The position numbers and the translations under genes are program-made. Shown piece after piece: positions 1,820 through 3,105 of a stretch of 12,743 nt of DNA. Each line of letters begins with the position of its first letter. Position 1 is the stretch's first letter. A model generated the notes under the pieces. It had not been told where the DNA came from. It searched no databases and saw nothing but the letters and a program-made list of their open reading frames with translations. Location: the sequence record OR845264.1. One strand, written 5' to 3'. This stretch comes from Escherichia phage ECO95 1-6-1.

Positions 1820-2038
1820 TTATGTTTTGCGACTAAATTGTTCATAGTGCTGAATTACCTCTCTCAAACATTTGCATGTGAATGAAAACTTTTTAGCTAC
1901 ACCACATTCAAATATGTGTTCTCTTAAATCACGTGTATCAGTATATCCCATCTCAACAATAAAATGCCGTATTAGATTTTTATCTTTATCATTGAGAGAA
2001 TTAAAATAATCGGATTTTGAATTAATTTCCCTGGCCAA
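1820..2038 (-). CDS. Hypothetical 72-aa protein with Cys cluster (C-x14-C-x-C), TTG start
   Basis: Track ORF starts at TTG (2038-2036) preceded by GAAGGTAA. Overlaps the upstream ORF by 17 nt. The first in-frame ATG would give only 43 aa. Confidence 0.4.
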   Translation of the reverse strand: MAREINSKSDYFNSLNDKDKNLIRHFIVEMGYTDTRDLREHIFECGVAKKFSFTCKCLREVIQHYEQFSRKT

Positions 2039-2318
2039 ATTGAATTACCTTCAGTTGACGTTTTAGATCTTTTATCATCTCTTCATTCATCGCAATATAA
2101 AGATCGCGTAAAGCAGGTTTTAACATTCCATTTACTGGAGAACTAAATGGACATACATAATCTTTTCCTACGAGCTTTTTGGCGAATTCCATATCACAAA
2201 ACTGAAATGCCGGTTCATTAGCATAAATTCCCCAATTAGTTGACATCATTTTATTAGCATATTCCAATGCCTTAATTTGATTCGTAATTCCATCAATTTG
2301 AAACTTTTTAATATTCAT
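2022..2318 (-). CDS. Hypothetical 98-aa protein
   Basis: ATG start overlaps the stop of the upstream 153-aa ORF (TAATG). Continuous - strand ORF in the arn-motA block. Confidence 0.5.
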   Translation of the reverse strand: MNIKKFQIDGITNQIKALEYANKMMSTNWGIYANEPAFQFCDMEFAKKLVGKDYVCPFSSPVNGMLKPALRDLYIAMNEEMIKDLKRQLKVIQFGQGN

Positions 2319-2779
2319 TAGTAAAGGTCCTCAGAGTAAAGTTCTTTTTCACTACCGCCGCGTTCAATACGTACTTGTCCAGCGTAAGTTGCAATAATCA
2401 TTGCTTCTTCACGTGTCCAATAATTACTATATTGGTCAATAAACCCTTGGTCATCATCACAAACTTGCTGAGTAACTAATTGAGGTTTAACTACATCTAA
2501 AACTTCTGCCATATCTTTAGAATAATGACGAGCACCTGGAATAATAAGAGTTCGTCCATCTTTTAATTTAAAGCGATTTGCTGCACAGACAATTCGTCGT
2601 TGATACTTTTGGTTTTCATCCCAGTACGCAGTCTGCCAACAGATTTCAGGAACTTCTTTCAGAATATCTTCTTCTGTGCATTTATAACCATGTGCTTTAA
2701 ATTTTTGAACAAGACTCTCCGGAGTCTCACGAGATAAAGGAACATTCAGCATTTTTAAACGATTGATAAATGGGTTCAT
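2318..2779 (-). CDS. Hypothetical 153-aa protein
   Basis: ATG overlaps the stop of the upstream 109-aa ORF (ATGA). Largest unknown ORF in the arn-motA block. No recognisable motif. Confidence 0.6.
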
Positions 2780-3105
2780 TTAAACCATCCTTTAATACGC
2801 TGCCACAAAGTTTTCTGCTGAGCTTTGTTAACACCAATTGAACGAATAACCGGTTGAGATTCCTGGAATTCTTTATAATCAGCAAGGTAAATTTCGTAAG
2901 CTGCATCTGTAAAGGAACTTATCGCTGCCATGAAATTATTGCGAATACCTACTGGAGCATCTTTACTTTCACGAATAATCATGTATTTACCAGTCTTAAT
3001 CTTTACAATAGTTCCAAGATAAGCTCCATGGTACCAAATATCCCAACCCTCTTGAGTAGGTTCTGCACAACGACGAAGTTCATTGACAATTTCTAACTTG
3101 TTCAT
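2776..3105 (-). CDS. Hypothetical 109-aa protein
   Basis: ATG at 3105 preceded by GAGGAATAAATA, which overlaps the motA stop codon. Confidence 0.6.

Follow-up and report, generated by a model that had tools for sequence, protein, structure and literature searches.

The four minus-strand open reading frames (ORFs) that lie between motA and arn in the window (the whole 12,743-nucleotide stretch of Escherichia phage ECO95 1-6-1 that was analysed; OR845264.1) are four genuine small protein genes arranged in one uninterrupted, translationally coupled run. They are the already annotated genes arn.1–arn.4 and not new genes, and since they have been catalogued before, their presence is not a discovery. 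The explanation that best accounts for the data taken together, and which is considered rather probable, joins this coupled run to corrected models of Arn.1 and Arn.4 and to a role of all four products as early effectors acting on the host. Such proteins would be conditionally useful in takeover or counter-defence and would not serve core replication or structural functions.

A coupled run that begins at motA

The window derives from a T2/T4-type Tequatrovirus, its DNA being ~97.5 % identical to that of the best-matching phages. Gene order matches that of T2 (LC348380) and T4 (NC_000866), in which arn.1–arn.4 (T4p258–T4p261; NP_049869–NP_049872) are likewise encoded on one strand between motA and arn/asiA, in identical order and with protein identity of about 81–100 %. 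Identity to the T4 proteins is 97 % for Arn.1, 94 % for Arn.2, 98 % for Arn.3 and 99 % for Arn.4; to the T2 proteins it is 92–99 %, except for Arn.4 (81 %), which is frameshifted in T2. The first-pass annotation had described the four ORFs as unknown, which is right insofar as no function has been assigned to them, but the genes themselves are known under these names.

All four ORFs are present on the minus strand with the lengths originally called (109, 153, 98 and 72 aa; Table 1), and the flanking genes are, as had been claimed, asiA, arn and motA. The coding call and the proposed coupling are both upheld by the overlaps, the Shine–Dalgarno (SD) sequences and purifying selection. The arn.4/arn.3 junction is an ATGA (tcat at 2776–2779 in the window), the arn.3/arn.2 junction a TAATG (catta at 2316–2320), and 17 nt (2022–2038) are common to arn.2 and arn.1; pN/pS is 0.00–0.20 across the four ORFs, with polymorphism mostly at third codon positions. 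With the motA stop codon contained in the arn.4 SD, the coupled chain begins at motA, a point that had been missed. On the minus strand the run reads motA, arn.4, arn.3, arn.2, arn.1, a 39-aa DUF7230 gene, arn and asiA.1, with every start codon falling at or inside the end of the gene before it. The start of the transcription unit is likely to be a sigma-70-like promoter upstream of motA, although the overall promoter count in the scan was not above chance; a terminator-like hairpin (3853–3874) lies just upstream of this promoter. No minus-strand terminator was found after the run before position 1000, nor did the minus strand around the cluster contain a canonical MotA box. Co-transcription of arn.1–arn.4 with the gene for the McrBC inhibitor Arn has been reported (bioRxiv 10.64898/2026.06.19.733364).

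Table 1. Features of the coupled run and of the arn.1 initiation region (positions in the window)
Feature	Position	Strand	Basis or remark
Sigma-70-like promoter, TTTACA-17-TACTAT with TG, upstream of motA	3793..3821	-	Consensus scan only
motA (activator of middle transcription), 211 aa, first of the run	3116..3751	-	ORF; annotated in T2 and T4
motA stop codon within arn.4 SD; junction sequence CTGTGAGGAATAAATAATG			
arn.4, full-length form, 109 aa	2776..3105	-	
arn.3, 153 aa	2318..2779	-	
arn.2, 98 aa, precomputed Pfam PF26819, phrog_1844	2022..2318	-	
ArcZ pairing helix 2 (predicted), CGUCAAC	2054..2060	-	5' of arn.1 SD
arn.1 Shine–Dalgarno, AAGGUAAUU inside GAAGGUAAU	2043..2051	-	
arn.1, TTG start, 72 aa	1820..2038	-	Comparative conservation, SD, pN/pS
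ArcZ pairing helix 1, GCCAGGGAAAUU	2024..2035	-	RNAduplex; matches published site
GCAUU motif, proposed RNase E site (Collins et al.)	1963..1967	-	Inside arn.1 codons 24-26
39-aa Lys-rich ORF, pI 10.2, Pfam DUF7230 / phrog_1359	1726..1845	-	Pfam match, conservation
arn (McrBC inhibitor), 92 aa, downstream in the run	1458..1736	-	ORF; annotated in T2 and T4

The 39-aa ORF is a fifth coupled gene that had been overlooked; it shares 26 nt with arn.1 and 11 nt with arn. It matches PF23876 (DUF7230) with 44.9 bits (gathering cut-off 27; E = 1.2e-11), as do 10/10 of its homologues, and differences within it are exclusively synonymous (5 against 0 non-synonymous). The gene was found in 29/29 related loci, even those without arn, and in 1,196 phage records; it is labelled 'hypothetical' in T2 and is unannotated in T4. 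A PDB sequence and profile search with this ORF gave no significant match. Its interpretation as an ArfA-like ribosome-rescue peptide was rejected (hhalign probability 0.4 %; ArfA absent among the Pfam and PDB profile matches).

Members of the run differ in their distribution. The 39-aa gene, arn.3 and arn.4 were present at each of the T4-like loci examined; the distribution of arn.1 and arn.2 among T4-like phages is patchy, and arn is missing from many phages that retain arn.3 and arn.4. For the first three genes, such constancy is more in keeping with a conserved core-accessory function than with the rapid evolution of an arms-race gene.

The Arn.3 domain

Arn.3 is the best candidate among the four proteins for a defined activity. 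A variable N-terminal region of ~45 aa is followed by a conserved core of about 90–95 aa (residues ~58–153), which corresponds to Pfam PF26092 (T4_Y16D) and phrog_839 (E = 5e-74). This family, named after T4 Arn.3 and carried by Arn.3 and its homologues, has no function assigned; the Pfam tag is precomputed and stands on all 120 listed homologues of the 156 found, including proteins 96–97 % identical to the Arn.3 of the window. What is added here for PF26092 is the family size, the minimal core, the invariant residues, the lack of a match to any solved fold and the occurrence in giant SNase proteins. In an exhaustive profile search the family comprised 3,391 representative clusters, and the domain is present in 1,573 phage records from at least five unrelated groups of large lytic phages, including tandem-duplicated forms. 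It is apparently phage-restricted: a scan of ~185,000 species genomes with a narrow motif gave only two matches, both in metagenome bins, and because the motif was narrow, absence from cellular genomes is left unproven.

The structure model of Arn.3 is confident and has no fold relative among solved structures; the best match of the core in the PDB sequence and profile search was to PUF repeats (E = 0.015), with no accepted stretch. The invariant Arg, His, Gln and Asp residues would be located largely at strand ends and helix N-termini, and are assumed to gather in one pocket. The ~90-aa core would represent a stand-alone, probably dimeric domain, and the expected role of its invariant residues would be the binding or processing of an anionic ligand that carries phosphate, either a small molecule of nucleotide type or the end of a nucleic acid. 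As a large, uncharacterised phage-only family with a confident model and clear invariant polar residues, Arn.3 offers a tractable target for biochemistry.

The same core is found together with an SNase nuclease domain in five giant phage ORFs (777–1173 aa) near a head-closure gene (local HMM E ~1e-10; phrog_839 E = 5e-7), and its BFVD structural matches include three 'large polyvalent protein associated domain' proteins (probability 0.97–1.0). Large polyvalent proteins of phages and conjugative elements were reportedly described by Iyer and co-workers in 2017. The Arn.3 core shares with them these structural matches and a place in giant nuclease ORFs near virion genes; Arn.3 itself, however, is a small stand-alone early protein, and none of the named LPD Pfam families was matched. 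The giant ORFs that combine SNase and the Arn.3 core are putative injected polyvalent proteins. A search for fusion partners in ten long proteins of the Arn.3 family revealed no Pfam domains.

One reading of these features, unlikely in the authors' estimate, is that the Arn.3 core constitutes a new-fold, phage-restricted effector that neutralises a conserved host function, possibly through binding or breakdown of an immune signal of nucleotide type or of the end of a nucleic acid, and that phages deploy it in two settings, on its own as an early protein or within giant virion-associated proteins; a second, smaller element of the same reading is the gating of arn.1 translation by the host sRNA ArcZ. 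If true, this would place Arn.3 in a novel anti-defence or takeover family of very wide distribution, spanning more than 1,500 sequenced phages. The resemblance to the nucleotide sponges and signal-degrading enzymes Tad1, Tad2, Acb1 and Acb2 would be one of functional analogy only, based on small size, restriction to phages, probable oligomeric state, conserved Arg and aromatic residues and dispensability on laboratory hosts.

A comparably modest probability is assigned to Arn.3, and perhaps its neighbours, being an auxiliary enzyme of nucleotide or DNA metabolism that serves replication in large lytic phages and not counter-defence; a hydrolase or transferase with nucleotides or modified DNA as its substrate would be an example. 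The invariant Arg/His/Asp/Gln set does resemble catalytic residues, the gene is kept at all T4-like loci examined, and the fusion with an SNase nuclease domain points in the same direction. Moreover, the gene adjoins those for topoisomerase II and dexA in Kuttervirus, directly follows NrdD in an Ounavirinae phage and precedes a phosphoesterase and an RNA ligase in an rV5-like phage. However, no neighbour of Arn.3 homologues recurs in the four annotated phage groups or in a Pfam census of 150 neighbouring proteins, which show no consistent metabolic partner; the domain bears no likeness to known enzyme folds and is found in phages both with and without modified DNA, and knock-down of the gene in T4 had no fitness effect.

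Early expression and the host-takeover reading

A host-takeover or anti-defence role for arn.1–arn.4, as suggested in the first-pass annotation, is plausible. According to the supplement of PMC9697503, arn.2, arn.3 and arn.4 of T4 give early RNA and early protein, and arn.1 gives early RNA and middle protein, later than its neighbours. In the CRISPRi-ART knock-down of T4 on a laboratory host, all four genes are listed in the supplement of PMC11879866 as 'Not Fit', with no fitness effect. Searches of the literature by gene name and accession returned only these two supplements and the Collins 2026 preprint. Early expression, neutral knock-down, the natural loss of arn.4 in T2, the patchy distribution of arn.1 and arn.2, the phage-limited Arn.3 domain, its presence in giant nuclease-containing and polyvalent-type proteins, and co-transcription with Arn are all consistent with takeover or anti-defence. 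The suggested role fits expression, knock-down and distribution indirectly, but no homology or fold links the proteins to others of that kind.

Indeed, for none of the four proteins could a biochemical activity be assigned from homology, fold, fusion partner or a conserved neighbour. The statement that no motif could be assigned is borne out, Pfam, NCBIfam, PADLOC and PHROGs having yielded no functional assignment. Single-sequence and profile searches of the PDB with Arn.1, Arn.2, the Arn.3 core and Arn.4 gave nothing significant, and the only matches in the family libraries were weak, at chance level and under the curated cut-offs (Prok-E2_B, E = 0.05; Nif11 leader; PD-T4-9_B; REase_II). The remote-homology and structure comparison that had been recommended produced the confident Arn.3 model, but no relative of known function for any protein. 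For Arn.2 (pN/pS 0.19; no significant match in its PDB profile search), the analysis yielded no functional lead.

The T4 McrBC inhibitor Arn is a DNA mimic encoded in the same run, 84 nt downstream of arn.1, and the 'anti-restriction nuclease' names that databases give to Arn.1–4 arose because they were carried over from this neighbour. The proteins belong to different families: Arn is phrog_3151, and Arn.1, Arn.2, Arn.3 and Arn.4 are phrog_4452, 1844, 839 and 1594, respectively, with Pfam families that differ as well. Membership of a known anti-restriction family of the Arn, Ocr or ArdA type was rejected, as there was no match in Pfam, NCBIfam, PADLOC or the PDB and the PHROGs differ. Strongly acidic DNA mimicry was also discarded, since Arn.1, Arn.2 and Arn.4 are basic (pI 8.5, 8.9 and 9.2), unlike an acidic DNA mimic, and the pI of Arn.3 is 5.5.

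The position of the genes between motA and asiA would be explained if Arn.1–Arn.4 were accessory factors of the MotA/AsiA takeover of transcription, binding host RNA polymerase, sigma-70 or DNA and tuning the early-to-middle switch. This is judged quite unlikely. The location is conserved across T4-like phages, and Arn.1 is small and helical, with a possible metal site and a weak, non-significant profile match to an RNA polymerase subunit of phage AR9 (E = 0.36), the best hit in a PDB profile search that found nothing significant. On the other hand, no HTH or sigma-related family was matched, Arn.3 homologues abound in phages without a MotA/AsiA system and Arn.1 also occurs in a T5-like phage. 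Nor did profile comparison relate Arn.1 to AsiA or MotA (hhalign probability 0.9 % and 0.5 %, respectively), and a paralogous origin was rejected.

Corrected gene models and the ArcZ site

In the T4 and T2 records arn.4 is given as 68 aa and arn.1 as 43 aa (1820–1951 only). On comparative evidence both are under-calls, the true products being a 109-aa Arn.4 and a 72-aa, TTG-initiated Arn.1. The N-terminal extension of arn.4 is conserved (pN/pS 0.02). The window carries the intact ancestral gene, whereas the T4 reference has an ATG>ATA change at the start codon, confined to three records derived from that reference, and T2 has a 2-nt frameshift that is present in 8/8 T2/SV76 genomes. The modelled Arn.4 fold comprises a helix, a five-stranded antiparallel sheet, further helices, a flexible linker and a C-terminal amphipathic helix. 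Arn.4 would be a small alpha/beta domain whose flexible tail is followed at the C-terminus by an amphipathic, Trp-rich helix, a possible anchor on the membrane or on a protein partner.

The TTG start of arn.1, proposed in the first-pass annotation together with a good SD, proved to be real: GAAGGTAAT lies at a 5-nt spacer, and TTG is the sole possible start because an in-frame stop occurs two codons upstream. The T4 and T2 relatives compared have GAAGGUGAU at the SD instead. No SD precedes M30, the start of the 43-aa form; in divergent phages the long arn.1 begins with ATG, and T4 M30 is replaced by Leu in most. Codons 1–29 hold 9/25 of the invariant residues and show 14 synonymous and no non-synonymous differences (pN/pS 0.00), and 802/807 phage records align to at least 80 % of the 72-aa protein. 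It is highly improbable that the T4/T2 annotation is right and that the 70 nt upstream of a 43-aa, internal-ATG arn.1 are a non-coding spacer with an ArcZ-responsive RNase E site (Collins et al. 2026), for although this form is annotated in both records, has a matching PHROG (phrog_6212) and leaves a 'spacer' that does hold regulatory sites, the 29 open upstream codons are conserved at the protein level and the comparative data above already contradict it.

The cysteine cluster of Arn.1, earlier given as C-x14-C-x-C, is in fact C45-x9-C55-x-C57, and C55 is not conserved. The pattern that is invariant, in eight sequences down to 35 % identity, including a T5-like (Demerecviridae) homologue, is H41-x3-C45-x11-C57-x6-H64. 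These four conserved ligands form a putative HCCH-type metal site, and Arn.1 may be a small helical protein that is probably metal-stabilised at H41, C45, C57 and H64.

The errors in the reference entries have practical consequences. The T4/T2 models of arn.1 and arn.4 are wrong and the conserved 39-aa gene is absent from the T4 record, which affects proteomics databases; knock-down screens are affected as well, since CRISPRi-ART directed its arn.1 and arn.4 guides to wrong starts. As these guides targeted mis-annotated internal ATGs, the dispensability of both genes in T4 has been weakly tested.

The revised arn.1 model also alters the context of a published host sRNA site. ArcZ pairs with arn.2 at +285..+294, CCAGGGAAAU, and stabilises the transcript (Collins et al. 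2026, bioRxiv 10.64898/2026.06.19.733364). The site is unchanged in the window (2025–2034) and, with the ArcZ sequence checked in E. coli, RNAduplex gave −26 kcal/mol against −13 ± 2.4 for shuffled sequences, a value reached by 0/500 shuffles and the best in the motA-to-asiA region. The first helix directly follows the arn.1 TTG on its 3' side and covers part of the arn.2 stop codon; the last 13 codons of arn.2 hold both the pairing site and the arn.1 initiation region. The two helices are conserved jointly only in Tequatrovirus-type loci, the site co-occurs solely with TTG-start arn.1, and the weak TTG sits inside the 3' end of arn.2, exactly at the ArcZ pairing position. No Rfam family was found at the locus, and the local RNA fold at the arn.2/arn.1 junction was no better than that of shuffles (z = +1.2).

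The 70 nt following the site, regarded by Collins et al. as intergenic, are here codons 1–29 of arn.1; the ArcZ pairing is thus located 1 nt beyond the TTG, with a second, predicted one 5' of the SD, and the proposed RNase E site becomes intragenic. Given its position in the arn.2/arn.1 overlap, ArcZ brackets the real arn.1 ribosome-binding site, and it is on this account that gating of arn.1 translation is proposed. The published effect concerns transcript stability, and the geometry suggests that translation of arn.1 is likely to be modulated as well. Placing ArcZ on the true arn.1 initiation region changes how this interaction between a host sRNA and a phage is to be interpreted and tested. 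The phage used by Collins et al., T2, carries the frameshifted arn.4, whereas that of the window is intact.

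Gene content and gene models of the arn run

The 2.4 kb around the four ORFs between motA and arn matched 661 phage records in a sequence search, with 97.5 % identity to T2-type Tequatrovirus genomes. [quoted passage not shown] These genes are already known, being annotated with Pfam and PHROG families of unknown function; the re-analysis adds corrected gene models, a hidden DUF7230 gene, a reinterpretation of the ArcZ site and a characterization of the Arn.3 family.

Features of the arn region and the predicted pairing of its RNA with ArcZ
Feature	Position	Strand	Description
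arn.4	2776–3105	minus	109 aa
arn.3	2318–2779	minus	153 aa
arn.2	2022–2318	minus	98 aa
arn.1	1820–2038	minus	72 aa, TTG start
39-aa ORF	1726–1845	minus	Lys-rich, pI 10.2, MNNLVAKHNFNKASVHKDKKKAFKESNRKQKHKGKVYDY; bridges arn.1 and arn
Predicted ArcZ helix 1	2035–2024	minus	12 bp; directly after the arn.1 TTG, into the arn.2 stop
Predicted ArcZ helix 2	2060–2054	minus	7 bp; upstream of the arn.1 SD

The first-pass annotation had described a chain of four coupled ORFs, the lengths of which (109, 153, 98 and 72 aa) were exact, as were the three junctions (ATGA at 2776–2779, TAATG at 2316–2320 and a 17-nt overlap at 2022–2038). An SD sequence precedes every start, namely GAGGA for arn.4 and arn.2, AAGGA for arn.3 and GAAGGT for the TTG of arn.1, where a good SD had also been recognized. 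Two further elements had escaped that reading: the arn.4 SD overlaps the motA stop codon, so that the coupled run starts at motA, and the 39-aa ORF is its fifth coupled member, sharing 26 nt with arn.1 and 11 nt with arn. A consensus scan placed a promoter-like site upstream of motA (3793–3821), preceded by a terminator-like hairpin (3853–3874), while a scan for minus-strand terminators from this site down to asiA found none; taken on its own, this layout fits, if weakly, one polycistronic unit. In T2, the RNA from arn.4 to arn is a single transcript (bioRxiv 10.64898/2026.06.19.733364).

In the annotation of the T4 and T2 records, arn.1 begins at an internal ATG and encodes 43 aa, and arn.4 encodes 68 aa. 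A comparison of 29 related loci shows the long arn.1 frame to be open and conserved, and at least 80 % of the 72-aa protein is aligned in 802 of 807 phage records. Codons 1–29 hold 9 of the 25 invariant residues and, among close relatives, show 14 synonymous and 0 non-synonymous differences. In divergent phages the long frame begins with ATG, and the position of T4 M30 is Leu in most. The TTG is the sole available start, an in-frame stop lying two codons before it. The 43-aa model is effectively refuted, since the upstream codons are conserved as protein and no SD lies ahead of the internal ATG; the comparison argues firmly for the 72-aa form.

Homologues of Arn.4 span 100 % of the 109 aa at identities down to 46 %, with the majority of invariant positions in codons 1–41, for which pN/pS is 0.02. 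The T4 reference carries ATA in place of the ATG start, a variant seen in just three records, each going back to the original T4 sequence, and a 2-nt deletion common to all eight T2/SV76 genomes shifts the frame at about codon 27; the window therefore has an intact ancestral arn.4, for which conservation strongly supports the 109-aa form.

The 39-aa ORF significantly matches Pfam DUF7230 and phrog_1359. All 29 loci contain it, even where arn is lacking, as do 1,196 phage records, and its variation is synonymous only. It is conserved more widely than arn, yet the T4 reference does not annotate it. A likeness of this ORF to ArfA was suspected but did not hold.

The ArcZ site at the start of arn.1

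According to a 2026 preprint on T2, pairing of the host sRNA ArcZ with arn.2 (+285..+294) shields the RNA from RNase E; the functions of arn.1–4 are described there as unknown (bioRxiv 10.64898/2026.06.19.733364). The ArcZ sequence was verified in E. coli, and its duplex with the window RNA was computed. The resulting two-helix site scores best of all sites between motA and asiA, at −26 kcal/mol compared with −13 ± 2.4 for shuffles, 0 of 500 of which reach this energy, and the pairing falls on the arn.1 initiation region. What the preprint treats as a '70-nt intergenic region' in T2 lies here inside arn.1 codons 1–29, as does its GCAUU RNase E motif (1963–1967). This pair of helices is restricted to loci that have a T4-type arn.2 and a TTG-start arn.1, and is missing wherever arn.1 starts with ATG.

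T4 omics data class arn.2, arn.3, arn.4 and arn as 'early RNA / early protein' and arn.1 as 'early RNA / middle protein' (PMC9697503 supplement). This delay of the Arn.1 protein would fit a weak or regulated start, and ArcZ may modulate arn.1 translation. The arn.1 SD (2043–2051) reads GAAGGTAAT in the window and GAAGGTGAT in all other fetched loci with the ArcZ site (T4, T2 and relatives); the difference is a single G>A, GAAGGTGAT pairs better with the anti-SD, and the substitution may lower arn.1 translation in the window phage.

Arn proteins and their possible roles

The earlier statement that the four proteins show no assignable motif holds: searches against Pfam, NCBIfam, PADLOC, PHROGs and PDB sequences linked none of Arn.1–4 to a family with a known function. 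CRISPRi-ART in T4 scored arn.1–arn.4 as 'Not Fit' (PMC11879866 supplement). The arn.1 and arn.4 guides cover the internal ATGs of the erroneous annotation (T4 161775–161835 and 162803–162858; same supplement), off the true initiation regions, and the score is therefore weakly informative for these two genes. The arn.1–arn.4 genes are firmly regarded as real, conserved, early and individually dispensable members of one coupled run. With motA and asiA in the same gene order, their products could alternatively assist MotA and AsiA as accessory transcription factors; we infer instead that Arn.1–4 are conditional host-directed effectors.

All Arn.3 homologues carry Pfam PF26092 (T4_Y16D, the former name of T4 Arn.3), and an exhaustive profile search yielded 3,391 representative clusters. 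At its smallest, the domain spans ~85–95 aa (residues ~58–153 of Arn.3), a unit that often stands alone and is sometimes a tandem duplicate; R61, A66, A67, R69, R84, H85, Q111, G112, F113, D115, Y120, R123 and Q135 are invariant, and L-[FY]-S-E-D-L-Y is conserved at the C-terminus. Phage records with the domain number 1,573 (Straboviridae, Ackermannviridae, Ounavirinae, rV5-like and phiKZ-like phages); among ~185,000 species genomes scanned with a narrow motif, only two metagenome bins had it. Neighbouring genes vary, with no recurrent partner among them. Arn.3 represents a large, apparently phage-only family without a known fold relative. It may bind or process a phosphate-bearing ligand; a rival reading is that it serves nucleotide or DNA metabolism rather than acting as a host-directed effector.

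A viral structure library gave matches of the Arn.3 model to three 'large polyvalent protein associated' proteins, and a motif scan of viral contigs recovered five giant ORFs (777–1173 aa) in which a degenerate Arn.3 core accompanies an SNase nuclease domain. They lie at L052 1475–4996 and on contigs L086, L089, L097 and L117, with SNase at the N-terminus, the Arn.3-type core at ~355–440 and ~700 aa without a Pfam match. The L052 ORF, the sole locus inspected in detail, adjoins a head-closure gene and an acetyltransferase. One possibility is that the giant ORFs encode virion proteins that are ejected or of polyvalent type.

The Arn.4 model (pLDDT 82) comprises a helix, a five-stranded antiparallel sheet, helices, a low-confidence linker and a conserved C-terminal amphipathic helix, and its top fold matches are proteins without known function. 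The C-terminal helix resembles the FtsA membrane-targeting helix in hydrophobic moment (0.59 vs 0.57), and Arn.4 may be tethered through it. The 'C-x14-C-x-C' cluster attributed to Arn.1 was misread: the cysteines are C45, C55 and C57 (x9, then x1), and C55 is variable. H41, C45, C57 and H64 are invariant, even in the 35 % identical, 94-aa homologue of the T5-like Serratia phage Kamaji (Demerecviridae; L124, 214–498), which does not keep the N-terminal DYFNS motif; the Arn.1 family is therefore not limited to T4-like phages. Arn.1 may be a metal-stabilized helical protein. The only extended alignment of its profile, with a non-virion RNA polymerase subunit of phage AR9 (PDB 7s00_C; 56 residues), was non-significant (E = 0.36) and probably reflects chance. 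No lead was obtained for Arn.2.

Flanking genes

The topoisomerase II large-subunit frame (11961–12743, minus strand) is open to the window edge and runs unbroken into the part that forms the separate gene 60 in T4, so the gene 39/60 arrangement is unsplit here and the T4 gene-60 bypass insertion is absent. Upstream of the holin gene t, the end of a glycine-rich ORF (52–336, plus strand; GGGGGRPFGAPGG...) can be equated with the T2-type gp38 adhesin, in keeping with a tail-fibre tip that is T2-like rather than T4-like.
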